A stretch of 64,000 nt of DNA from a bacterium (GTDB lineage: Bacteria; SAR324; JACQKK01): NCBI GenBank assembly GCA_965240465.1, contig OZ251219.1:192001-256000 (forward strand). The letters run 5' to 3'. Within the stretch, counting starts at the first letter, position 1; each line of letters begins with the position of its first letter. A model generated the notes under the pieces. The model was not told the origin of the DNA, made no database searches, and worked only from the letters and a program-made list of their open reading frames with translations. The translations under genes and the position numbers were made by a program. Positions 2,247 through 64,000 of the stretch are shown here, one piece after another.

Positions 2247-3428
2247 CTAATATCTTGGCAGTGAGGGGTCTATCTCCTTAGCCCAGCTGTCTATTCCCCC
2301 TTCTACACTGACAGCATTGAGGAAACCTTGTTCCTGCATTATACGCACCGCAGTTTCTGAGCGAATGCCATGATGACAATATACAAAAATCTTTTCCTCC
2401 TTAGGCAATAAATCCAAACCATTCGGCAAATCACCAACCGGAGCCAACCGTGCCCCCTTGATGCGTACCATGTCCCATTCATGAGGCTCTCTCACATCCA
2501 CCAGAATGACATTTCCCTTGCCCATGGATTGCTGAAGTTCTCTCACTGTTGCAGTTGGAACAGGAGTTTCCTCTGTTTTTTTCTCAGCAGTGTCCGCCTG
2601 ACTGGCATTCACAAATGATTCATAATCCATAAAACCTCTCAGACTGGGGTTATCTCCGCAAAGCACACACTTCTTGTTTTTTGCCATTTGCAGGGTTCGG
2701 ATGCTCATATCTAAGGCATCATACAGAATCAACCTATTTTTCATGACCTTGCCAATACCCACGATAAACTTTATCGCCTCGGTGGACATCAGCAAACCCA
2801 CCACGCCTGGGAGCACGCCTAAGACACCTGCTGTGTTTCAATTCGGTGCCAGGCTAGGCGGCGGCGGGACCGCGTACAAACAACGATAACAAGCCCCTCC
2901 CTCACGCGGAATAAACAAACTAACTTGTCCTTCAAATCTAAAAATAGATCCTGATATCAATGGCAAACCCGCGAACCACGCCGCATCGTTCACTAAATAT
3001 CTAGTTTCAAAATTGTCCGAACAATCCAGCACTAAATCCCAATCAGCAAAGATAGACTCCACATTCTCCACCGTTAAACGCTCCCGATACTCCTTCACCT
3101 CTACATAAGGATTCAGAGCCTTGATGCGACGCACCATTGATTCTGACTTTGGCCGGCCAACACTGGCGGTGTCATGGGCAATCTGCCGATTGAGGTTGCT
3201 TTCTTCTACCAAGTCGTTATCCACCACTCCTATAGTACCCACTCCTGAAGCTGCCAAATAAATCCCCACTGGCGAGCCTAATCCACCTGCCCCAATGTAC
3301 AACACCCGTGCCTGCTTCAAACGCAACTGCCCCGCTACTCCCACCTCCGGCAAAATTAAATGACGATTGTATCGCCGGCTCTCATCAGGCGACAACATTT
3401 CATCTGGTGTTCTATCCGACATCCACAC
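2247..3428 (-). CDS. moeB: MoeB/ThiF adenylyltransferase fused to a C-terminal rhodanese domain (MoeZ type), with an in-frame TGA at 2838-2840 (probable selenocysteine)
   Basis: ORFs 2838-3428 and 2247-2816 share one frame: GAGGLG...DNFETR...CYRC...PPPPSLAPN-TGA-NTAGVLGVLPGVVG...CVLC...rhodanese loop CHHGIRS. Confidence 0.88.
2790..2837 (-). promoter_or_regulatory. Candidate bacterial SECIS hairpin immediately 3' of the UGA
   Basis: Hand fold: lower stem CAGCAG/UUGCUG, upper stem GCUC-CCA/UGG-U-GGGU, apical loop GGCG starting 31 nt after the UGA. Confidence 0.5.
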
Positions 3429-3638
3429 TCTCCAAAGACCTAATTCATCCCATCTATCCCTGCAAAAACCCCCCCTCCACAGTACTCATTCCCTTGTTTT
3501 AATACAAGCACTAAAATTATTTCCACCCCCAGGTAAAGTCATTGATTTTCTATATCTTTAGGTGAATAATTCACTATATGCATGTATGCATGTGCTGTCA
3601 ATACCGTCCATTCAGCAATAAATTCCCAGAAATTAACC

Positions 3639-3667
3639 TTGACGAAGACACTAATAAGCGTTATGCT
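3639..3667 (+). promoter_or_regulatory. Sigma70-type promoter of the hrcA operon
   Basis: TTGACG-N17-TATGCT directly upstream of the CIRCE. Confidence 0.75.
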
Positions 3668-3670
3668 ACT

Positions 3671-3697
3671 CTAGCAGTCTCAATGAGATAGTGCTAA
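3671..3697 (+). promoter_or_regulatory. CIRCE element (HrcA operator)
   Basis: CTAGCAGTC-N9-TAGTGCTAA versus consensus TTAGCACTC-N9-GAGTGCTAA, upstream of hrcA. Confidence 0.85.
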
Positions 3698-3717
3698 CAA
3701 CCACGGATGTCAGAAAC

Positions 3718-3759
3718 CATGAATACTGGGGCATGAATACTGGAGCATGAATACTGGAG
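3718..3759 (+). repeat. 14-bp tandem repeat x3 in the hrcA leader
   Basis: CATGAATACTGGGG, CATGAATACTGGAG, CATGAATACTGGAG, then a partial GAATACTAG. Confidence 0.9.
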
Positions 3760-3818
3760 ATAGCAGAGAATACTAGCCGTAGCAACACCGATTGAGCAAG
3801 TTATGTAGGTTACAAGAT

Positions 3819-8943: not shown

Positions 8944-9780
8944 CTAATTCTTTTTGCTCTGGCGTTTTATCGATGCTGGGATAGTTTCGCCTATCATTCC
9001 TTCGCTAGGGGAAGATGACTGAGCAGACTGTCTGGGAGGAATACGCCCTGCATGATGAGCATAAAAACCAGCTTCGCAAGCCAAAGCCATGGCACGTGCC
9101 ATACCAGGAGGGTCTTCTGCCTCGGCAATGGCTGTATCAATAAGAACACCATCGCATCCTAGTTCCATAGCCTGAGCAACATCAGAGGCAGTACCGATGC
9201 CGGCATCAATAATCACAGGGCATGAGAGTCTTTGGCAGATCAGAGATATATTATAAGGGTTAAGAATTCCCATGCCCGAACCAATAGGTGCCCCCAGAGG
9301 CATTACCGCCGCACAGCCGATTTCAGCCAATTTCTGGCAGGTGATGGGGTCATCAATGCAATAGGGAAGCACCTCAAATTTAAGGCGATTGAGTTCACGA
9401 GCTGCTTGAAGGAGTTTTTCAGCATCGGGATAGAGTGTGTATTCATCGGCAATAACTTCCAACTTGATGAGATTTGTTTGCAGTGCTTCCCGGGCTAGTT
9501 CCGCGGTGTAGACAGCTTCTTTGACGGTATAGCAACCTGCGGTATTGGGAAGTACCTGTACTCCTTCTTTTTTAAGGATGGAAAAAATATCTTGCTGGTT
9601 GGTATTAGGGGTCATCCTTCTTAGAGAGACGGTAGCTAGTTTAGAGCCACTGGCACGGAGAGATTTCAACATCATCTGCTGGCTGGGGTATCGGGCTGTA
9701 CCCAGGATGAGGCGAGAAGGAATTTTATGACTGCCGAGACAGAGTCCGTCTGCAAAATATGGGCGGCATGAGAGTGACAT
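8944..9780 (-). CDS. thiG: Thiazole synthase
   Basis: LPNTAGC, IKLEVI, AVMPLGAPIGSG, DAGIG. Confidence 0.97.
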   Translation of the reverse strand: MSLSCRPYFADGLCLGSHKIPSRLILGTARYPSQQMMLKSLRASGSKLATVSLRRMTPNTNQQDIFSILKKEGVQVLPNTAGCYTVKEAVYTAELAREALQTNLIKLEVIADEYTLYPDAEKLLQAARELNRLKFEVLPYCIDDPITCQKLAEIGCAAVMPLGAPIGSGMGILNPYNISLICQRLSCPVIIDAGIGTASDVAQAMELGCDGVLIDTAIAEAEDPPGMARAMALACEAGFYAHHAGRIPPRQSAQSSSPSEGMIGETIPASIKRQSKKN

Positions 9781-9843: not shown

Positions 9844-10050
9844 TTATCCCCCCATTACAGCGGTTAAAATTTCTAATTGCTCGCCACCTTCAATAACGGT
9901 ATTATGCCAGTGATCGGAACTGATGATTTTACCATTCAGGCTGATGGCAATTGCTTCAGTTTGAGGAACTAATTTCTTCAACAATTGGCTTAGGGATGTT
10001 TTACTAGGCAGCTGTTCGGATTTACCGTTGATGTGGATAATGATACTCAT
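9844..10050 (-). CDS. thiS: Sulfur carrier protein ThiS
   Basis: 68 aa from ATG 10050: MSIIIHING...C-terminal GG; upstream of thiG. Confidence 0.92.
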   Translation of the reverse strand: MSIIIHINGKSEQLPSKTSLSQLLKKLVPQTEAIAISLNGKIISSDHWHNTVIEGGEQLEILTAVMGG

Positions 10051-10222
10051 GGCAACAATATAAAGATAAAATACCCTTTGGTAAGAATATAAATACAGGA
10101 CGCTTTTTGAAAAAATAAGATATTTTATATTATTGCAAAAAATAGGCACACATAGATTATTTTATTCACGGAGCATCCTTGGCTACGAAATACCTCCTGA
10201 TGTGTAGACCATATATTTTAAC

Positions 10223-10297: not shown

Positions 10298-10609
10298 ATG
10301 GAAAGTATGTTATCCGATGATAGTCAGGAAAATGTCAATCGTGGGTTGATGTTGTTGATTTCCGGTGGAGTGACTGTACTCCTTAAGTGGGTGTTACCAT
10401 CTGTGGCTCCGTTTGCGGTGGTCGCTTATGGGGTTTATCGCTTGTATACTCGCAATTTTCAAGAAGGGGGCATTGCCATTTTGGTGGCCTTGTTACTATT
10501 GTGGCAACGTGCTGCGGTGGGATGGCTGTTGTGGTCTGTAGGAGCATTAATGGCAGGGTTAGGCTTGTTCTTGCTGATAGCAGGCCTCAGAGAGCGACTA
10601 ACTAAATAG
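10298..10609 (+). CDS. Small hypothetical membrane protein
   Basis: 103 aa with about 4 hydrophobic segments. Confidence 0.7.
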   Translation: MESMLSDDSQENVNRGLMLLISGGVTVLLKWVLPSVAPFAVVAYGVYRLYTRNFQEGGIAILVALLLLWQRAAVGWLLWSVGALMAGLGLFLLIAGLRERLTK

Positions 10610-10666: not shown

Positions 10667-11365
10667 ATGGCGAAGTATTTTATCAAAAATATAGCAACAT
10701 TCGCAGTTTTGGCAACTGCTGTATTATCTTCTGATTGGGTATTGGCTCAATCCACCATCCGTTTGGATGATTTTTCCTCAAACTTTCAGCCCCAAACACT
10801 GCCTAAAAATTGGGAAAAGAAAACAATAAAATTTCTGGCTTCTGAGAAGGGAGAAGAATATCAGTTTTTTAATAAATCAAATGAGCATTACATTCGCATG
10901 GCTACTGGGCCGGGGAATTTTTTCAGTCTGTCACCTAAGCGAATTGTTCTGCCCGTTGATTACCCCATTCTAGCTTGGGAATGGAAAGTATCTCGCTTTC
11001 CATCAAAAACCAAAATCAAAAACGGACTGCGTAGCGACAAGGCTGCCTCTATATGTCTATTTGACAATTATTCCAGCAAATTAAAATACCGTGCTGTTTG
11101 CTATGCGTGGGAGCTAGATAGTACTAAAGATGTTCCCCTCTTAACCCCCGGCAACAAACGCATTTATTTTATAATTCTCCGTACCCAAAAAAGCGACAAA
11201 AAAGAACAGTGGTATCCTGAAAAACGTAATTTGCAAGTAGATTTCAAGAAAATCTGGAAAAAAGAACCACGTGAAGGAAGAATCGTACTTTTCGTAGATT
11301 CGGATACCTCTAAATCCAATGCAGAGGCCGCGTTCCGTAAAATAATCATCTCTAAAACTCCCTAA
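10667..11365 (+). CDS. Secreted protein, DUF3047-like
   Basis: Signal peptide; YPILAWEWKV, AVCYAWE, WYPEKRNL and VDSD motifs resemble DUF3047. Confidence 0.65.
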   Translation: MAKYFIKNIATFAVLATAVLSSDWVLAQSTIRLDDFSSNFQPQTLPKNWEKKTIKFLASEKGEEYQFFNKSNEHYIRMATGPGNFFSLSPKRIVLPVDYPILAWEWKVSRFPSKTKIKNGLRSDKAASICLFDNYSSKLKYRAVCYAWELDSTKDVPLLTPGNKRIYFIILRTQKSDKKEQWYPEKRNLQVDFKKIWKKEPREGRIVLFVDSDTSKSNAEAAFRKIIISKTP

Positions 11366-11404
11366 AACCAAGCTCTCAGGGGAGTCCCAAGCTAGGATTA
11401 GGTG

Positions 11405-12112
11405 TCAAATGGACATCGGCTGTGCTTCAAGTATTTGCATAGCCAGTTGCAACCAGTTGGGCGGTATATGTCCTTGGGAAAAAAAATCGCCAACGGAGTT
11501 ATCAAAAGGTAAGAAACAAGCATTGATGTTGAGTTCATGCTTAGTAACATGTCTACAAAGGGACTGCTTGTTTTTGCTGAACTCCGCCGCATGAAAAAAA
11601 TCTGGCGATTGAACCTGATTAAATACCACCTGTGCCAAAAAATCTCGCTCTGTTTCTACTTTGGATTGTCGCTTGATGAGAGCTGCCAACCAAGTTAGCG
11701 TCCACACATCGGGCAGAACAGGAAGGCATGGGATAAGCAACAAATCCGCGGTGCGAATAATGCTCTCGGTAGAAGCAGAAAGACCGGGAGGACCATCTAT
11801 GACTACCCAGTCTACATCAGTACGGGTACGCAACTCCAAATGCTTATCTGGTAAAGGCAGGGTTTCCAACTGCATTTCTTTAGGTAGCCCATGCATAGCA
11901 CACCAGTCACTGCTGGTAGCCTGAGGGTCAGCATCCACCAACAGTACCCGTTGGTGAAGTCGTTGCAAGGCTAGGGATGTAATTAAAGACAGGGTACTCT
12001 TTCCCACCCCCCCCTTCTGGTGCAAAAAAGCCACCACCGCAACCCTTTTCTGGTGGAGCCAAACCGCATTTGGCAACCGAAAGGTATCTTTATGACGGAA
12101 AGAACCCGTCAT
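11405..12112 (-). CDS. ParA-family ATPase (short, orphan)
   Basis: QKGGVGKST, DADPQ, IDGPP. Confidence 0.85.
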   Translation of the reverse strand: MTGSFRHKDTFRLPNAVWLHQKRVAVVAFLHQKGGVGKSTLSLITSLALQRLHQRVLLVDADPQATSSDWCAMHGLPKEMQLETLPLPDKHLELRTRTDVDWVVIDGPPGLSASTESIIRTADLLLIPCLPVLPDVWTLTWLAALIKRQSKVETERDFLAQVVFNQVQSPDFFHAAEFSKNKQSLCRHVTKHELNINACFLPFDNSVGDFFSQGHIPPNWLQLAMQILEAQPMSI

Positions 12113-14549: not shown

Positions 14550-14850
14550 AATATAAAAAACCGAGTGCCAATCCAGCTATAAACACCTGCAACCAGCCTA
14601 TTTTCACCATTATGGCATATGTTGCTATTTTAAGTGGTACAACTGATAAAAAGCACCGTGAAACATCTGCTAATATGTGCCAGCCTTATGAACCACAAGT
14701 ACTTACGATATACTTCTATTTTGAAAACCTGTCCTTCCACACCTGCTATAAATATGAGACAAGTACCCAATCAAAGAGATAACAGCTATTTTTACTTCTC
14801 TGATGATTTGCCTGCCTTGTCATTCTGCCACCTACCTTTTAGAGCATACC

Positions 14851-15648
14851 ATGTCTACCACTATTGTATTCTCTAGCGAAAAAGGCGGAGTAGGCAAAAC
14901 AACTTCGGCGGTCAATTTATCTGCCAGTCTGGTTTCTGCCAATTTTCGGGTATTGGTGGTAGATATGGACCCCCAGAGCTCAGTGCGTTTCTCTTCTGGA
15001 GTCAGTAAAGAGTCCCCACTGGGTACTTACCAACTTCTTACCGACCCCCAAACTCCGCTAGAAAATTTGATTCAGATCACTCCGGGATTAGGGCTAGATT
15101 ACATATTTGCCAATTTCAAGGACTGGTCTCAGGAAAATGACACCCTCTGGCATATCCAGCCCGACACCCTTAAAAACCGTCTCAATCTGGCTTCTAATTA
15201 TGATTTCATCATCTTAGATGCCCCCGCCAGCCTCAACATGCTCACCCTGAATGCCATCACAGCCGCTAACATTGTCATTCTGCCGTTGCAGTGCGAGTCG
15301 CTAGCTATGCATTCGCTCAAACGATATTTGCAAGGGTTCCATTATTTACAGCAAAAACACAATCCTTCCATTCGTATTGCGGGAATACTGTTGACTATGT
15401 TTGATAAAAATCTTGCTATCCATCGCCGTCTCTGCCAGCAAATCTATCGCACTCTGGGGGATTCGGTGTTAAAAACCATCATTCCCCGCTCAAGGGAATT
15501 AGTGGAAGCCTCTGCCTTAGGACAATCCGTACTCACATACAATGCCCATTCCATCGCGGCTACATCCTATTTGCACCTGAGCAAAGAAATTTTACAGAAT
15601 TTTTATTATCCTCATTCTGCCACTCGCTCATACGCTAACCCTACCTAG
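14851..15648 (+). CDS. ParA/Soj-family ATPase
   Basis: EKGGVGKTTSAVNL, DMDPQ, LDAP, PLQCE, GILLTMFD. Confidence 0.9.
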   Translation: MSTTIVFSSEKGGVGKTTSAVNLSASLVSANFRVLVVDMDPQSSVRFSSGVSKESPLGTYQLLTDPQTPLENLIQITPGLGLDYIFANFKDWSQENDTLWHIQPDTLKNRLNLASNYDFIILDAPASLNMLTLNAITAANIVILPLQCESLAMHSLKRYLQGFHYLQQKHNPSIRIAGILLTMFDKNLAIHRRLCQQIYRTLGDSVLKTIIPRSRELVEASALGQSVLTYNAHSIAATSYLHLSKEILQNFYYPHSATRSYANPT

Positions 15649-33891: not shown

Positions 33892-34349
33892 GAGGTAGTA
33901 GAGTTAGAAAACGCGGGCCGCTGTTTATGGAGGGATATAGTCCCTTACATCAAATAGAGGAAAGTCCGGGCTCCACAGAGTAGGATGCTGGTTAACGGCC
34001 AGTGGGGGCAACCCCAAGGAAAGTGCCGCAGAAAATAAACCGCCGATGGAAGATAAGCCCATTTTGGCTTAAACTTCACAGGCAAGGGTGAAAAGGTGGG
34101 GGCTATCTAGCCTTAATGTAAGAGCCCACCGCGGCGGTGGTGACATCGCTGGCATGGCAAACCCCATTCGGAGCAAGTCCAAGCAGGCAGTGATAAGGCT
34201 ACTCGTCTTTAGTGCTGCCGGGTAGGATGCTAGAAATCGTTGGCAACGACGATTCCAGATAGATGGCCCGTAGCCAATGATGGCTCTGGTGCATATTGTA
34301 TCATCATCACTGGAACAGAACCCGGCTTATTGAAAACTCTGCTACTTCG
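33892..34349 (+). ncRNA. rnpB: RNase P RNA (bacterial type A)
   Basis: GAGGAAAGTCCGGGCTCC, AGTGCCGCAGAAAA, GGCAAACCCC, GAGCAAG, ACAGAACCCGGCTTA; P1 GGTAGTAGAGTT/AACTCTGCTACT. Ends approximate. Confidence 0.96.
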
Positions 34350-34388
34350 CCTTTTTATAGTCGCTTCTTTGCTAGGAAAAACAATAGC

Positions 34389-35243
34389 ATGAATAAGAAA
34401 ATGAATTCTTTGCCTAACGAATACCACAACCAGATATTTAACCGTGACGTCATGGAGGTGCTGCGTAAATTACCTTCTGGCTGCCTTGATATGATCTACG
34501 GTGACCCTGATTACAATGTAGGGATAAATTACAATGGCCAGAAATTCAATCGTAGCTGGGAAGATTATATTGATTGGTACGGTCAGTTAAGCGAGGAATG
34601 CATGCGAGTGCTACACCCTGAAGGCAATTTGTTTTTGATAAATTACCCTCGCCAAAACGCTTGGTTGCGGGTTAAGAAATTAGAATCTTTAGCCTTTGGC
34701 GTACATGATTACGCATGGGTTTATAACACCAACATTGGTCATTCTAACCGTCATTTTACCACTGCACATCGTTCTATTTTGCATGCGACCAAGTCTAAGC
34801 ATAATAGTTTTTATAAGGAACAAGTAGCCCAGCCCTACAAAAATCAACATGACAAGCGAATTTTAGCCAGAATTAAAAACGGTCATTCTGGCCGGATGCC
34901 ATATTCTTGGTTTTATTTTGATTTGGTAAAGAATGTCTCCCAAGAAAAGACCTTCCATGCTTGCCAAATTCCCATAAAATTATTTGAAATGCTCATGCAT
35001 TCTTCTACTAAGGTAGGCGATAAAGTATTTGTTTTGTTTGGCGGTAGCGGCTCAGAGGTAGTAACTGCCAAGCACGGGCAGCGGATATTTACATCTTGTG
35101 AAATTCACCCAAAGTACTACCGATTGATTGTATCTCGCTTGTACGAAGAAAATGTCCTTTCAGCGATCAAGTCTTCTGGGGACAGATCCATTGCCTCAAA
35201 GACCAATCAACAGATTCCAATTGGGTTGGATTTATTGCCATGA
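34389..35243 (+). CDS. N4-C/N6-A DNA methyltransferase (beta-class motif order), orphan
   Basis: N-terminal catalytic motif DPDY, HACQIP, C-terminal SAM motif FGGSG; no endonuclease adjacent. Confidence 0.88.
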   Translation: MNKKMNSLPNEYHNQIFNRDVMEVLRKLPSGCLDMIYGDPDYNVGINYNGQKFNRSWEDYIDWYGQLSEECMRVLHPEGNLFLINYPRQNAWLRVKKLESLAFGVHDYAWVYNTNIGHSNRHFTTAHRSILHATKSKHNSFYKEQVAQPYKNQHDKRILARIKNGHSGRMPYSWFYFDLVKNVSQEKTFHACQIPIKLFEMLMHSSTKVGDKVFVLFGGSGSEVVTAKHGQRIFTSCEIHPKYYRLIVSRLYEENVLSAIKSSGDRSIASKTNQQIPIGLDLLP

Positions 35244-39091: not shown

Positions 39092-39511
39092 TTAGTTGAG
39101 CCGAACTGGTTTGTTTTTCAGCAAGTAATCTGCTGTAGCTTGGTGTTCCACTCGTAGCATTCCGTTTTGGAGTGTACACCCTGGAGGCAGTTGTTTTTTG
39201 TTTTCGGCAAGGAATTTTTCTAGCATTTTTTCTAAGACACTCTCTCCGCCCAGAATACTCTCCAGAGCAGCAGGCAGTTTGAGCCCCAACAAAGTGTAGC
39301 TGTCCGAGGTCTCTACCACCTTAATGTGCACCGATAAAGCCCCTAATTTCCCCAGCATTCCAGGAGGACGAATACATAAACAAACACCATCCCCCTTTAT
39401 CTTGATATCATCAATCATGGCACCATTTATGTCGGGAGAAGATTTGGCTAATGCTCGTCCAAAAGCAGATAAAGCCAGGAGCAAAGAACAATCTACCTCA
39501 TTGTCACTCAT
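39092..39511 (-). CDS. Hypothetical protein
   Basis: 139-aa ORF co-oriented with and downstream of gltA; no motif recognised. Confidence 0.6.
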   Translation of the reverse strand: MSDNEVDCSLLLALSAFGRALAKSSPDINGAMIDDIKIKGDGVCLCIRPPGMLGKLGALSVHIKVVETSDSYTLLGLKLPAALESILGGESVLEKMLEKFLAENKKQLPPGCTLQNGMLRVEHQATADYLLKNKPVRLN

Positions 39512-39546: not shown

Positions 39547-39813
39547 TTATGGTTGCCAGCGGGCACGTTCCAGTGTTTTCTTGCGACGCATCTCTTGAGC
39601 CAGTGCATGCAGTCGCTCTAAGTGTAACTGAAGTGGTGACCATTCCCAATTAGGATTTTGGTGCTCTATCTCCCTTAAAACTTCCAGCGTTGTATGCCAT
39701 TGATGTAGCAACTCACTATGATCATGTTTTTCAATAGGCACTTCTGGCGTGATTGGACCAGGTTGCTGATTTTTTTTGTCAGACATTATTAGTTTTTTCT
39801 CCTCATATCGCAA
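39547..39813 (-). CDS. Small hypothetical protein
   Basis: 88-aa ORF; GAGGAG precedes an internal ATG (MSDKK). Confidence 0.5.
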   Translation of the reverse strand: MRYEEKKLIMSDKKNQQPGPITPEVPIEKHDHSELLHQWHTTLEVLREIEHQNPNWEWSPLQLHLERLHALAQEMRRKKTLERARWQP

Positions 39814-41566: not shown

Positions 41567-42778
41567 ATGTCCAACCAAATAAAAATAGCAAGTCTGAGCA
41601 CTCTCGGAGTGACTTTGGCTCTGCTTCTAAGTACACAAGCACTCGCTCAACCGGAAATCTCTGGTATGGCGAGAACTTCTTTCGGTCAATTTGGCGTCAG
41701 TACCAAAGTGGGAAGTGATAAGGCTGAAAGTTCCTCCGGCTTTGCTGGTAGCTTCCTAGGCGGGTTGATTATTGAAGGCACAGCTGGGGCGGTCGGTTAT
41801 TCTTTCGGATTAATTGGCGAAGCCAAAAATGGTGGCACTGAGTACGGTGGTACTTACGAGAGAGATGACACTGTAGGAGTGTCAGGTGAGCTCACCTTTT
41901 CTCCCATTGAAAGCTTAACCATAGCGTTAGGAAATAGTGTAGGCGTGGGTGAGGGAAACATCACCAATGTCAGTGTCGGAGGCTACCCCATTGGAATTAA
42001 CCGACCGTCTGACTTTGGTTTCAGTGCCGGTTCTCAACTTGTGTTTCGTTTTGATGATGGTACCTTCCAAGCCGGTTTTGGATTCGGTGGTGATAAGTCA
42101 GATGAGCTGGTAGTAATAGAAAAAGCTTCAGCAGATGACGCATCTACCCCTGATGTAGACGAAACAGTTGCAGTAGTTAAAGAAGGTTCTTTAAATGAAA
42201 CACTTTACTTTGCCAATGGTAAATTACTGGATGGTGCTCTGTTTGTAGGTCTACGAGGTAACATGGTCACCGAAACCGCCACAGATGAAGAGGTAGCTAC
42301 TAAGTTAACCAATAAGACTACTAGTTCAGCCCTAGGATTTGGGGCTAAATTTACCCAAGATCTATTCTCAGTCGGTTTTGAGAGTGGCACCACCAGTGGC
42401 ACTTTGAAAATAGGTGATAAGGAAAAGCTGGATACATTTAATACTAGTATTATAGCCCTTGGAGGCTCTGTTAATGTTGGAACTGGTGTTATAGCCATTG
42501 GTTATAGTGCCGACACAACCTCCCTTGCCAAAGCTCCTAAAGGAGAAGGTGCGAAGAAAGGTGAAAAAACTGATGTGGTAACCCTGGTAGAGTATAAATT
42601 GAATCCCAACATCAATTTTGTCTTTGGTAGCCAAGCCGTTACTGATGACCTTGTTGCTGATACCTCGTTAGATACTTATGGTGCCACCAAAGATGTTGTT
42701 GTCGCTGGTGTAACGACTAGTCTCAAGTCAACAGAAACACAATCTTTCATTGGTTTGGTTCTTAAGGCTACATTCTAG
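41567..42778 (+). CDS. Putative outer-membrane beta-barrel protein (porin-like), paralog 1
   Basis: RBS AAGGAG, signal peptide, Gly/Thr-rich alternating strands, C-terminal Phe. Confidence 0.7.
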   Translation: MSNQIKIASLSTLGVTLALLLSTQALAQPEISGMARTSFGQFGVSTKVGSDKAESSSGFAGSFLGGLIIEGTAGAVGYSFGLIGEAKNGGTEYGGTYERDDTVGVSGELTFSPIESLTIALGNSVGVGEGNITNVSVGGYPIGINRPSDFGFSAGSQLVFRFDDGTFQAGFGFGGDKSDELVVIEKASADDASTPDVDETVAVVKEGSLNETLYFANGKLLDGALFVGLRGNMVTETATDEEVATKLTNKTTSSALGFGAKFTQDLFSVGFESGTTSGTLKIGDKEKLDTFNTSIIALGGSVNVGTGVIAIGYSADTTSLAKAPKGEGAKKGEKTDVVTLVEYKLNPNINFVFGSQAVTDDLVADTSLDTYGATKDVVVAGVTTSLKSTETQSFIGLVLKATF

Positions 42779-42908: not shown

Positions 42909-44177
42909 GTGTCTAATTTTTTTAAGCTGGGATTAGGGGTTATTCTTTTTTTGCTATTAAGCACGCAAGCATTTTCCCAAGATCAGCCCCCGGCAGAAGA
43001 TTCCAGTGCTGATACAGAAGGTGAAGAGTCTTCAGAACCTCTTGAGATTAGTAGTTCTGTAAGTGTATCATATGGTCGGTTGAGTAGTACCATCAAGCCT
43101 GCTCTCAGTGGATACAGCGTTCAAGATGGGAACACATTTGGTGGTAGCTTTTCAGGCAGCTTATCTTTTAGTGGTGATACCGATTTGTTTTCTTATGGTT
43201 TTGGGCTTTCGGGTTCGTCCGGTTCGGGGACAACCAAATCTGGGGCAAACATTAGCTCTGAGAGTGGTAGCGTGTCGTTAGGCGGCTCGATAAATTTTTC
43301 TTTTGCTGAGGAATTCGGTCTTAGCATAGGCAATAGTGTTGGCAGTGGCAGTATTGTAGCAGCCAGTGTGGGTAGAGGAGGTTCTCCTGTTTCCATCAGC
43401 CATCCCTCTTCTATAGGATTATCTGGACATAGCTTCATACTAAATTATAATAGCGAACTGCTACAAGCCGGTTATGGGGTAGGTAATAGCACAGCTGCGA
43501 TACCTCTTGTAGCTGCCGATGAAAGTAATCAGGACGATACTAATGGCAATTTGACTCATGTGCTGTACTACGCCAATGCTAGCCTGCTTGATGAAAGTTT
43601 GTCATTGGGGTTCCGTTCTCGCACTTCAACCACCACAGTAGATGTTCAAAGTCAGCCCGAAAGGCCAACAAGTCCCAATAGCAATAACCTTGTCCCCGCC
43701 ATAGTTGGTCGCACCAATAGGCATGTGTCAATTAGCAATGGTTTTGATGTGCGTTTCTCCAAAGATGCCCTATCTATAGGATTTGAATCAGGGAATAACC
43801 TCAAAAGCATTGATTCAGGTGAGGGTGTTCTTAATGTAAAAGGCGACTACGAAAAAACCTCTAGTACCGCTATTGGTGCTAGCTATGGCTCATTTGCTTT
43901 TGCACAAAGTAATAGCGTAACCAAGCCTGTCACCTTTGTAGGGTTTGTAGGAGTAGGTGAAGGCAAGAAGTGGGAAAAAACTAGTATTGCCCGTACCTTA
44001 GGATATATTATCAATGACAGTACCCACGTTATCTATGGAAGCAGATCTTCTAAAGATAATTCAGACCCTGATAATGCAAATTCATTTACCGTTTACGGCT
44101 CAGCATTTATAAATGGCACAAAAGAAACAAATGAAATCTTTATTGGTGCAGTTTTCAGTGCTGGTGCTTCAAACTAA
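42909..44177 (+). CDS. Putative outer-membrane beta-barrel protein, paralog 2
   Basis: RBS AGGAGG, signal peptide, collinear motif blocks shared with 41567-42778. Confidence 0.7.
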   Translation: MSNFFKLGLGVILFLLLSTQAFSQDQPPAEDSSADTEGEESSEPLEISSSVSVSYGRLSSTIKPALSGYSVQDGNTFGGSFSGSLSFSGDTDLFSYGFGLSGSSGSGTTKSGANISSESGSVSLGGSINFSFAEEFGLSIGNSVGSGSIVAASVGRGGSPVSISHPSSIGLSGHSFILNYNSELLQAGYGVGNSTAAIPLVAADESNQDDTNGNLTHVLYYANASLLDESLSLGFRSRTSTTTVDVQSQPERPTSPNSNNLVPAIVGRTNRHVSISNGFDVRFSKDALSIGFESGNNLKSIDSGEGVLNVKGDYEKTSSTAIGASYGSFAFAQSNSVTKPVTFVGFVGVGEGKKWEKTSIARTLGYIINDSTHVIYGSRSSKDNSDPDNANSFTVYGSAFINGTKETNEIFIGAVFSAGASN

Positions 44178-45336: not shown

Positions 45337-46089
45337 GTGAACTGGCGTAAATTGATTACCCTTATTATATCCGTAGATGAGGGGCGTTCATTTTATTGGA
45401 GTTTGCCTTGCTGGCGATTGTTGCTGTGGGCATCAATGGGTGCGTTTTGTTTGGGATTGTTATTGTTTGTTTCTATTGATTATTTGTTTGCCCATGGTCG
45501 TCTGAATAACCTACAGGCACAATTAGCAGATATTACCAAGCAGGCACAAGCATTTGAGAAACGGTTGTTTTTTGCAGATAAGCGGAATTTTGAGAGTTCT
45601 TATTCACCCCCAGCTGTAGAGGGAGATGAAGATTATCAGCTACCCTTGTCCTTGAAGAGTGCTCGTGCTTGGGTTGGCAGTAATACAGTGGAGTTAGATT
45701 TTGTTCTACAGTTGAGATCTACAGGATCTTCTTACGGAGGAGATTCATTGAGTAATGTTCCTTCTCCTTTGAGTGGTACCATGGTGGCAGTGCTAGCTAA
45801 CGAGGATGAAACTCCGGTGCAGTATTTAAGTATTCCAAGAATGAATGTAACTGAGCGTGGATTTCCAAGTAATCGTTTTGCTGGTATTCATTTTTATCAG
45901 GTGCGTAGAAAGTTACATTTTCGCCGCAGAGTATCATTGTCTGTGAATAGAGATTATTTTACTCATGTTTTGCTATATGTTTTTTCCTCGCGAGGAGGCA
46001 TTATCTGGCATCAGCGTTTTAAGATGGAGCGAGAATGGTTTGCACGCCCCATAGAACACGAGCCACATCCACTTGTGTCTACTTTTTGA
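45337..46089 (+). CDS. Hypothetical bitopic protein (TM, coiled coil, beta-rich domain)
   Basis: 250-aa ORF, RBS AAGGA; lies upstream of the bactofilin gene. Confidence 0.7.
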   Translation: MNWRKLITLIISVDEGRSFYWSLPCWRLLLWASMGAFCLGLLLFVSIDYLFAHGRLNNLQAQLADITKQAQAFEKRLFFADKRNFESSYSPPAVEGDEDYQLPLSLKSARAWVGSNTVELDFVLQLRSTGSSYGGDSLSNVPSPLSGTMVAVLANEDETPVQYLSIPRMNVTERGFPSNRFAGIHFYQVRRKLHFRRRVSLSVNRDYFTHVLLYVFSSRGGIIWHQRFKMEREWFARPIEHEPHPLVSTF

Positions 46090-58161: not shown

Positions 58162-58941
58162 CTAAACTCTCGCCCGTATTTTAGTCTGCCAGTTAGTCAA
58201 CATATCTGGCTTTAGTAGCGATAGGTACAACAATGTTTGAACCGCAGCCCCAAATGGATTAGCCAAAGAAGAAAAAATAACCACTAATAATGGAGATAAA
58301 GGTCCTGGAAAAAACGAATTCTGTATTAGTAGCAAAAGAAAAGGCTGCACTTTAACTATAAGAAATACTACCAAGAACAATCCTAAACTGGTGAAAAAAT
58401 CCGAACGAATCAAACCTACCGAACGTGCCATAGCCGCATGTGGTAAAGGATTATCCCATAATGCTGTACACACCACCAGCTGCAATAGAGTCCCCAACAG
58501 TATTCCGGGAATAATCAATAATATAAATCCCAACACACTGATAAAACTAGCAGCCGCGTACGTCAGCAATACCCCTACCCAAGGAACTCCCACTGCCAGT
58601 TTCAATAAACATTTTATCCCCAACGATCGCTTGTTTTTGCCGTCATCACTGGTATTCTCAAGCACCGCATACCCCGCTGCCAAAGTCAGCATCATCAAAG
58701 ATGCTCCATCGCTTAACACCGTCACCAATAAGTAAAAACCCAGTGTCACCCCTGATATTTTATCGCCTTGTAAATCCAAACCCAATAACATCAACAATAC
58801 CACCAGCTGTGGCAACAGGGCCAAGCTAAACCACAACGATAAATTCCGAACATATAATTTGCCTGCTAATTTCAATAGCTGAAATGCAGACATCCTTTTC
58901 AAGCTCAACAATTCCATGTTTTTCTCATTTGCAGCTATCAA
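58162..58941 (-). CDS. Hypothetical integral membrane protein
   Basis: About 6 TM segments; LLIIPGI motif. Confidence 0.75.
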   Translation of the reverse strand: MIAANEKNMELLSLKRMSAFQLLKLAGKLYVRNLSLWFSLALLPQLVVLLMLLGLDLQGDKISGVTLGFYLLVTVLSDGASLMMLTLAAGYAVLENTSDDGKNKRSLGIKCLLKLAVGVPWVGVLLTYAAASFISVLGFILLIIPGILLGTLLQLVVCTALWDNPLPHAAMARSVGLIRSDFFTSLGLFLVVFLIVKVQPFLLLLIQNSFFPGPLSPLLVVIFSSLANPFGAAVQTLLYLSLLKPDMLTNWQTKIRARV

Positions 58942-63277: not shown

Positions 63278-63353
63278 TGGTACCCCTGCCAGGACTTGAA
63301 CCCGGAACTGAGCTTTAGGAAAGCCCTGTTTTATCCAGTTGAACTACAGGGGC
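63278..63353 (-). tRNA. tRNA-Arg (anticodon CCT)
   Basis: GCCCCTG...GGGCT-TTCCTAA-AGCTC...CCGGG-TTCAAGT-CCTGG-CAGGGGT-A-CCA; 76 nt cloverleaf with encoded CCA. Confidence 0.93.
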
Positions 63354-63428: not shown

Positions 63429-64000
63429 ATGACAAAAAAGACCGAACCAGCACAACTGATCCTTTCTCAGGAGAAAAACCAAGCAAAACAAATCCCCCTA
63501 CGCCTGCGAACCCTAGCTAATCTGCTCATCAGCTGCCAACCTTCTAAACAACTGGCTACCGAAATTAATCAAACCATCACCTACTGGGAACAGTCCCTCC
63601 TAAGAACACCAAACCCCGATACTCCACCCCCAACAACTCCCCACCAAACCCCATCCTCTACCATTCACCCTCCCGAGTCCATAAAGGAACCTGAAATACA
63701 GGCTTGGTGCGATGGCTCTTGCTCGCCTAACCCAGGACCCGGCGGCTGGGGAGTACTCATTCACGCCGAAGGAAAAAAATATGAACTCAGCGGAGCAACT
63801 CACAATAGCACCAACAACATTATGGAACTCACCGCAGCCATCCAAGCCATCACCCCCACCCAAACAGGATGCCACCTGATTATCACTACTGATAGCCGCT
63901 ACCTCATAGAAGGTATTACTCGCTGGCTACCACGATGGAAAAAAAACGGCTGGCGTAAAGCTGATGGCAAACCAGTTCTAAATCAAAAAATCTGGCACCA
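63429..64000 (+). CDS. rnhA: Ribonuclease HI with N-terminal extension (3' end beyond window)
   Basis: Not in the ORF track. Hand translation: MTKKTEP...AWCDGSCSPNPGPGGWG...STNNIMELTAA...TDSRY...WKKNGWRKADGKPVLN. Confidence 0.92.
   Translation, partial: MTKKTEPAQLILSQEKNQAKQIPLRLRTLANLLISCQPSKQLATEINQTITYWEQSLLRTPNPDTPPPTTPHQTPSSTIHPPESIKEPEIQAWCDGSCSPNPGPGGWGVLIHAEGKKYELSGATHNSTNNIMELTAAIQAITPTQTGCHLIITTDSRYLIEGITRWLPRWKKNGWRKADGKPVLNQKIWH

Follow-up and report, generated by a model that had tools for sequence, protein, structure and literature searches.

The window analysed here is a stretch of 64,000 nucleotides (nt) from a bacterium of the SAR324 lineage (GenBank assembly GCA_965240465.1, contig OZ251219.1, positions 192,001 to 256,000). 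Near its beginning, on the minus strand, lie two neighbouring open reading frames (ORFs), 2838..3428 (196 residues) and 2247..2816 (189 residues), which share one frame and are separated by a single TGA at 2838-2840. In the original prediction they were taken to be the halves of one gene for an enzyme of the MoeB/ThiF type fused to a rhodanese, with the UGA read as selenocysteine (Sec) in place of a conserved cysteine. The principal features of this gene are the following.

2247..3422, minus strand: the whole gene, for a sulfur-carrier adenylyltransferase/sulfurtransferase of the MoeB/MoeZ type; it begins at ATG 3422 and has 391 codons, one of them an in-frame UGA
2838-2840, minus strand: the in-frame UGA, probably read as Sec; residue 197 from GTG 3428, 195 from ATG 3422
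2667..3371, minus strand: adenylation domain of the ThiF/MoeB type, which runs across the UGA from residue 20 to residue 254 (Pfam PF00899, E = 1.1e-80, profile positions 1-236 of 238)
2277..2549, minus strand: Rhodanese domain, residues 294-384, with the active-site loop CHHGIRS (Pfam PF00581, E = 6.9e-17)

When 3428..2247 is translated on the minus strand with TGA read as Sec (U), a protein of 393 residues results in which U197 is the sole recoded codon, in the context PPPPSLAPN-U-NTAGVLGVLPG. This read-through translation confirms the claim that a single TGA divides one frame into two ORFs. The proposed span of 2247..3428 held for the frame but not for the start. ATG 3422 is preceded by GGAGAG, a Shine-Dalgarno-like motif ending 5 nt upstream, and GTG 3428, the alternative start two codons upstream, overlaps this motif; the database protein corresponding to the N-terminal half (P0122, 194 residues) also begins at ATG 3422. 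From these features ATG 3422 is likely to be the true start, and GTG 3428 less so.

The residue replaced by the UGA can be identified by comparison with enzymes of known structure. In phmmer searches against Protein Data Bank sequences, the TGA aligns with Cys187 of E. coli MoeB (1jw9), with Cys184 of E. coli ThiF (1zud, 1zfn) and with Cys202 of Chaetomium Uba4 (6yub), where it falls in the segment S-C-G-E-A-G. Two further Uba4 entries, 6yuc and 6z6s, show Lys at the aligned residue, the C202K trap. According to the sections of the Uba4 study covered here, C202 lies on the crossover loop and forms a thioester with Urm1, and this thioester is attacked by the persulfide of the rhodanese cysteine, C397 (PMC7527816). 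The aligned position is Cys in 120 of the 120 best full-length database relatives, which are 46–53% identical to the window protein. At the DNA level, a profile search of genome contigs with an alignment of Sec-type N-terminal halves yielded 80 loci, all of the Cys type (with Cys at the position of the UGA) and 46–52% identical; a Cys codon was found at the aligned position in 73 of these (TGC in 61, TGT in 12), and the other seven were missed by the search pattern. This search ranked full-length matches first and returned Cys-type loci only. The UGA thus stands, as had been proposed, at the conserved Cys of MoeB and ThiF.

This residue lies within a continuous domain. The ThiF model of Pfam matches without interruption across the TGA, and the motifs named in the original prediction were all found: GAGGLG at residues 46-51, CYRC at 180-183, CVLC at 254-257 and CHHGIRS at 351-357, with the codon of the rhodanese active-site Cys351 at 2376-2378 (minus strand). 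Each falls on invariant columns of an alignment with 42 Cys-type homologues (G46, G48, G49, G51, C180, C183, C254 and C257, and, in the rhodanese loop, C351, G354, R356 and S357); column 197 is likewise invariant, as Cys. The read-through protein was modelled with AlphaFold2, and the model has a mean predicted local distance difference test score of 89.8 and a predicted template modelling score of 0.72. Within the adenylation domain its confidence is lowest at residues 191-200, as is expected for a mobile crossover loop. In Foldseek searches the model matched Uba4 with E = 2.9e-36, MoeB with a template modelling (TM) score of 0.96 and a root-mean-square deviation (rmsd) of 1.2 Å, and ThiF with a TM score of 0.97. 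Since the ThiF domain and the fold matches both span the break, the break sits in the middle of a fold, at its catalytic residue.

A family of selenoproteins of this kind has been catalogued in marine metagenomes. The sections covered here of the 2005 study of the Sargasso Sea selenoproteome by Zhang, Fomenko and Gladyshev count a “molybdopterin biosynthesis MoeB protein”, with 11 sequences, among the new selenoprotein families (PMC1088965). In the accessible portion of its supplement, a TGA is marked between ...LVPS and [AS]-V-[AS]-G-V-L-G-V-L-P-G in 11 of the 11 sequences, the same position as in the window, which bears out the earlier statement that a marine family of Sec-containing MoeB had been reported; the longer ORFs run into a rhodanese domain and end ...GGIDLWAEEVDPDMPQY (PMC1088965). 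The window protein ends ...GGIDSWAKEIDPSLPRY. In the excerpts available, the family is listed with 19 sequences in the Global Ocean Sampling study (PMC2398784) and again in reviews of 2022 and 2026 (PMC9312934, PMC13188914), while a study of Olavius symbionts gives it as “not detected” (PMC1976440). A literature search that left most subscription journals outside its coverage yielded bioinformatic catalogues only; a biochemical characterization of a Sec-type MoeB or MoeZ was not among its results.

The two ORFs could also represent a genuinely split gene, in which translation yields two cooperating polypeptides without any recoding, an N-terminal half (to 2838) and a C-terminal half that begins anew at GTG 2816. 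Gene callers yield exactly two proteins here (P0122 and P0123) and in relatives, and the break is conserved across a clade. Nevertheless, the break would fall inside the ThiF fold and take out exactly the catalytic residue. The seven codons from the TGA to GTG 2816 encode NTAGVLG, matching the invariant G201, V202 and G204 columns of Cys-type enzymes. In the published sequences, as far as the supplement was covered and when compared by eye, the codons of this region vary mainly at synonymous sites, and the region is therefore translated. A split gene could, moreover, use any stop codon, yet the codon is TGA in the window and in all 11 of the published members seen in that supplement. A split gene is improbable on this evidence, and decoding of the UGA as Sec within one gene is preferred.

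The distribution of the stop among relatives bears on its age. Among the best 120 short database matches to the window protein, the last residue in 99 is the one immediately preceding the Cys position; these are the window's own N-terminal half and 98 relatives, with ends such as ...PPPASLVPS, ...LVPN and ...LAPS. Of the remaining 21, one is the window's C-terminal half, 19 are fragments that contain the Cys, and one is a fragment with an earlier end. Over the N-terminal half, the 98 relatives ending at the codon are 58–75% identical to the window (median 63), and 137 Cys-type sequences are 52–61% identical (median 57). A FastTree phylogeny was built from 236 N-half sequences, leaving aside Cys-type sequences that missed the search pattern or were trimmed to an N-terminal half of at most 150 residues. 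In this tree, a split with support of 1.0 and a branch length of 0.54 separates the 99 stop-at-codon sequences, together with P0016, from 136 Cys-type sequences, and a Fitch count on the same tree gives two changes. P0016, from a source named “Deltaproteobacteria bacterium TL4”, is the sole Cys-type protein on the Sec-type side of the split; it may represent the closest Cys relative, or else a lineage that reverted from Sec to Cys.

The C-terminal halves show a complementary pattern of ends. Among 119 relatives of the window's C-terminal half, which are 37–44% identical to it, 26 begin 3–7 residues past the Cys position (16 of them with MLPG... or MLGVLPG...). The rhodanese loop is kept in 24 of these 26 and the CxxCG pair in 25. 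One relative of the C-terminal half, P0271, occurs on 193 contigs, with one source named “SAR324 cluster bacterium”, and some such clusters are large.

These distributions bear directly on the possibility that the gene is a pseudogene created by a nonsense mutation of the Cys codon. A single base change does turn TGC or TGT into TGA. However, a stop that is common to a single clade of 98 relatives, at 58–75% N-half identity, is ancient and not a recent nonsense mutation. In addition, every invariant motif is kept in both halves, the 3′ half has kept an unbroken ORF of 189 codons that matches the rhodanese model significantly, and the C-terminal halves of relatives are intact. The original prediction had named a recent nonsense mutation as grounds for abandoning Sec, and what was found instead was a shared stop followed by intact C-terminal halves. 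A pseudogene is extremely improbable, and Sec decoding again accounts better for the locus.

A second search, with the N-terminal half as query against a library of representatives at 50% identity, returned nine proteins ending right before the Cys position among its best 150 matches, the rest being mostly Cys-type or frameshifted. The small number is attributed to the 50% clustering, which hides Sec-type halves behind longer representatives. The nine (P0362, P0371, P0372, P0379, P0384, P0388, P0401, P0412 and P0435) show other contexts, for example ...PEPPPPALAPT, and several carry N-terminal extensions of 60–125 residues. Possible explanations are separate lineages of the Sec type, fusion to a carrier domain, or truncation at contig ends.

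Alternatively, the UGA might specify one of the standard amino acids Trp, Gly or Cys, through an altered genetic code or through context-dependent read-through without Sec, and the frame is open under any such decoding. The use of TGA elsewhere in the window argues against this. The 53 non-overlapping ORFs of at least 80 codons end in TAA (22), TAG (22) and TGA (nine, eight of them in other genes). Five TGA-ended genes, grpE, relA/spoT, gcvPA, dut and rppH, match NCBIfam models through to the model end. As TGA ends eight of the other 52 ORFs, five of them at full family length, the code is not reassigned. The position, furthermore, is that of an invariant Cys, a classic Sec/Cys pair, and no other gene in the window needs TGA to be read through. 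The only other TGA of the window with a long open read-through is that of a ParA-like ORF at 11405-12112 (minus strand), followed by 87 open codons. This candidate for a second selenoprotein (11144-12112 with read-through) was rejected: its extension has no Pfam domain and overlaps the opposite-strand DUF3047 gene at 10667-11365 (plus strand). Decoding as a standard amino acid is thus very improbable.

Together, the mapping of the residue, the clade that shares the stop, the ordinary stop function of TGA in other genes of the window and the published TGA in 11 of 11 family members support the proposal that the UGA is decoded as Sec. On the strength of these sequence comparisons, with a probability of roughly 0.85, the UGA at 2838-2840 encodes Sec within one functional two-domain E1-like gene of the MoeB/MoeZ/Uba4 type.

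In bacteria such decoding is expected to be guided by a selenocysteine insertion sequence (SECIS), and two candidate hairpins lie downstream of the UGA.

2784..2828 (core stem-loop 2796-2814), minus strand: candidate SECIS B, the hairpin of the original prediction, with apical loop GGCG and an extended stem of −13.6 kcal/mol
2806..2823, minus strand: candidate SECIS A, a short hairpin with loop CGUGCU, the loop starting 20 nt after the UGA

In hairpin B, counting from the U of the UGA, bases 27-33 pair with bases 38-45 around the GGCG loop (−6.5 kcal/mol). Adding the lower stem (bases 13-57) brings it to −13.6 kcal/mol, and this extended form is the fold of minimum free energy. A spacer of 30 nt follows the UGA, and base 31 beyond the UGA is the first G of the loop. 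The loose criteria of bSECISearch are a small apical loop, a G in its first two bases and 16–37 nt from UGA to loop, and hairpin B conforms to these criteria. It is also stronger than the best at 150 of 150 random in-frame coding positions of the window, an excess which is explained by the peptide, since a sequence rich in Gly, Val, Leu and Pro yields such hairpins by itself. The DNA of the published MoeB selenoproteins (PMC1088965 supplement) was compared by eye, outside alignment or folding tools. Hairpin B, so compared, cannot form in the published majority group, which has GGA GTT GTT GGA against GGC GTG GTG GGT in the window.

Hairpin A, by contrast with hairpin B, is available in all of the published sequences in which the region is visible. 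Its full set of seven pairs, again counted from the U of the UGA, is 17-36, 18-35, 19-34, 20-33, 21-32, 22-31 and 23-30. The numbers of pairs that can form in the two types of gene are as follows.

Published sequences with the region visible (10, by eye): 7 pairs in 6, 6 pairs in 4
Cys-type gene copies (76, from the 80 loci): 7 pairs in 0, 6 pairs in 4, 5 pairs in 19, 4 pairs or fewer in 53

The published counts are not independent, as the sequences are closely related to one another. The pair that closes the loop of hairpin A requires the Leu codon nine positions past the UGA to end in a pyrimidine. This codon is CTC in nine and CTT in one of the 10 published sequences, CTC in the window, and CTC or CTT in 15 of the 76 Cys-type copies; among the genes of the window CTC is the rarest Leu codon (9%). 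An RNA-level constraint exists right after the UGA in the MoeB selenoprotein family, and either hairpin A or hairpin B could serve in the window.

Several observations weigh against Sec decoding at this locus, most of them concerning the hairpins. As many as 57 of 200 dinucleotide shuffles (45 nt) fold as well as hairpin B. Among 250 synonymous recodings, in which the same peptide was drawn by the codon usage of the window, 61 give an equal or better qualifying hairpin and 177 pass −7.5 kcal/mol. Over the 71 nt past the UGA, folding is not stronger than in shuffled sequences (z = +0.65). The SECIS proposal was accordingly upheld for the hairpin itself, its GGCG loop and the G at base 31, but not for a fit that discriminates, since shuffles and recodings equal it so often. 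Hairpin A is weak in the window, at −0.4 kcal/mol with five of its seven pairs (18-35, 19-34, 20-33, 22-31 and 23-30). Rfam gave no relevant match, either for the window at the gathering threshold or for 2650-2950 at E values up to 10; a CRISPR-DR2 match (E = 3) in the latter region was dismissed as chance. The genes selA, selB and selD and tRNA-Sec were not found within the 64-kb window by NCBIfam, Pfam, Rfam and tRNA scans, a result that speaks for a split gene and for a pseudogene. The survey of relatives compared protein ends alone, and the stop codon of the 98 relatives could be other than TGA. Finally, the scores for both MoeZ (424.8 versus 647) and MoeB (421 versus 449) fall short of the NCBIfam equivalog cut-offs, which makes any assignment to an exact orthologue group and to a physiological carrier provisional. 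In these searches the best match was the MoeZ model NF005902 (protein residues 8-393, profile positions 11-392 of 392). Both MoeB equivalogs were missed, NF006444 by the score given and NF005646 with 399 versus 633, and only the MoeB subfamily model NF004281 was passed (289.1 versus a cut-off of 266).

The peptide G-V-L-G-V-L-P-G follows the catalytic Cys in the aligned enzymes of the MoeB/Uba4 type. One tentative idea, itself rather unlikely, is that its coding sequence (GGN GUN YUN GGN GUN YUN CCN GGN) of itself forms a hairpin 20–30 nt past the Cys codon, and that this hairpin is a latent SECIS which made the replacement of Cys by Sec unusually easy. The tuning of a few synonymous sites, for example the Leu codon nine after the UGA, would then almost suffice for the change. 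It may have happened more than once, as nine of the 150 representatives also end at this codon.

The enzyme is expected to work as follows if the UGA is decoded as Sec. SelB with Sec-tRNA(Sec) would decode the UGA, guided by a stem-loop about 20–60 nt downstream, for which hairpins A and B are candidates. By analogy with Uba4, the ThiF domain would then adenylate the C-terminal Gly-Gly of a carrier of the ThiS/MoaD type, ThiS being one candidate. The acyl group would move to Sec195/197 on the crossover loop as a selenoester, which the persulfide of rhodanese Cys351 would resolve, releasing the carrier thiocarboxylate. Sec, as a better nucleophile and a better leaving group, would speed both attack and release, and would resist irreversible over-oxidation.

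Candidate partners in the window lie on the same strand.

9844..10050, minus strand: thiS, candidate sulfur-carrier substrate, 68 residues from Met34, ending in Gly-Gly (NCBIfam, 57.9 bits versus 37.45)
8944..9780, minus strand: thiG, encoding thiazole synthase, which acts downstream on ThiS thiocarboxylate (Pfam ThiG, E = 7.2e-100)

The listed thiS ORF, 9844-10149, has 101 codons, but the Pfam ThiS domain covers residues 38-101 only, and the true start is probably Met34 (10050). The pair had been suggested as a possible substrate system 5.5 kb from the selenoprotein gene. The genes and their placement were verified; they form a separate transcription unit on the far side of the hrcA-grpE-dnaK-dnaJ operon, so the link to the enzyme, by proximity alone, is weak. 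No thiF was seen in the 64-kb window. About half of the best Cys-type full-length relatives (470–500 residues) have an N-terminal ThiS/MoaD-like domain, PF02597, fused to the ThiF and rhodanese domains. The window gene has no such domain, and the fusion in many relatives fits a carrier-activating role in general.

Upstream of the selenoprotein gene, the intergenic region 3429-3791 separates it from the divergently oriented hrcA. Promoter-like sites occur in both directions, on the minus strand at 3601-3573 (11/12) and on the plus strand at 3639-3667 (9/12).

3573..3601, minus strand: promoter-like TTGACA-17-TATAGT, an 11/12 consensus match only, about 150 nt upstream of the start

Elsewhere in the window, Rfam identified only RNase P RNA and a tRNA-Arg, the latter being the sole tRNA (anticodon CCU, 63278-63353, minus strand). 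The RNase P RNA is of bacterial class A (33900-34344, plus strand; 256.8 bits, full model). An ORF resembling an adenine DNA methyltransferase (34296-35243, plus strand) overlaps its 3′ end by about 50 nt, and because of this overlap probably starts further downstream. Two ParA/MinD-family ATPase genes, 11405-12112 (minus strand) and 14803-15648 (plus strand), lie within 4 kb and flank htpX and coaBC. Neither NCBIfam, at E values up to 1e-5, nor Pfam, at E values up to 1e-3, yielded a match for eight ORFs of 88–422 residues. Those on the plus strand are 41567-42778, 42909-44177, 45337-46089 and 10298-10609, and those on the minus strand are 58162-58941, 39092-39511, 39547-39813 and 63600-63875.

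As regards annotation, the database proteins P0122 (194 residues) and P0123 (189 residues) should be joined as one selenoprotein of about 391 residues, and the same correction is due for at least 98 related cluster representatives which end at the codon. In this family selenium occupies the catalytic cysteine position of an E1-like enzyme supplying sulfur to thiamin, molybdopterin or thiolated tRNA. Replacement of Cys by Sec at a residue that forms a thioester is of chemical interest because it implies a selenoester intermediate. The value of the locus lies in the corrected annotation and in the biochemistry of a Sec-bearing E1-like enzyme.

Several known systems resemble the one described here. 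At the RNA level, the SECIS of E. coli fdhF resembles hairpin B in being a stem-loop that lies in the coding region shortly downstream of the UGA and has a small apical loop opening with G. The distance from UGA to loop differs, at about 18 nt in fdhF and 30 nt in hairpin B. The window hairpin, a candidate from sequence folding, has no counterpart in Rfam.

Among the enzymes, MoeZ (NF005902) is the best NCBIfam match but has Cys, and the window score of 424.8, below the equivalog cut-off of 647, puts the window protein in an orthologue group different from MoeZ. E. coli MoeB (1jw9) and ThiF (1zud, 1zfn) share the adenylation fold (TM 0.96–0.97, rmsd 1.1–1.2 Å) and the zinc CxxC pairs; unlike the window protein they have no rhodanese domain and use Cys. 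In ThiF, C184 forms an acyl-disulfide with ThiS, and in MoeB, C187 is dispensable in vitro. Uba4/MOCS3 (6yub, 6yuc) is closer. It combines adenylation and rhodanese domains and is the best match in both sequence (E = 2.8e-61) and fold; the Sec aligns with its thioester-forming Cys202, and the rhodanese Cys is conserved. It differs in being eukaryotic, in using Cys for Sec and in its carrier, which is Urm1, whereas the candidate carriers for the window enzyme are ThiS, MoaD or CysO-like proteins.

The closest resemblance is to the published MoeB selenoproteins, as represented in the part of their supplement covered here. They carry the TGA at the same position, within ...CYRCLY..PPP..L.P[SN]-U-..[AS]GVLGVLPG..., and they share the ThiF and rhodanese architecture and a C-terminus of the form ..GGID.WA.E[IV]DP..P.Y. 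The window protein differs in having N-T-A after the Sec in place of A/S-V-A/S, and, by eye, its most stable downstream hairpin is unlike the one conserved in the published sequences. By its identities to relatives (58–75% over the N-terminal half and 37–44% over the C-terminal half), it is a divergent member of this known selenoprotein family. As the family, the position of the Sec and the architecture have been in print since 2005, the present finding adds a divergent member and a measure of the size of its clade, and not a new kind of system.

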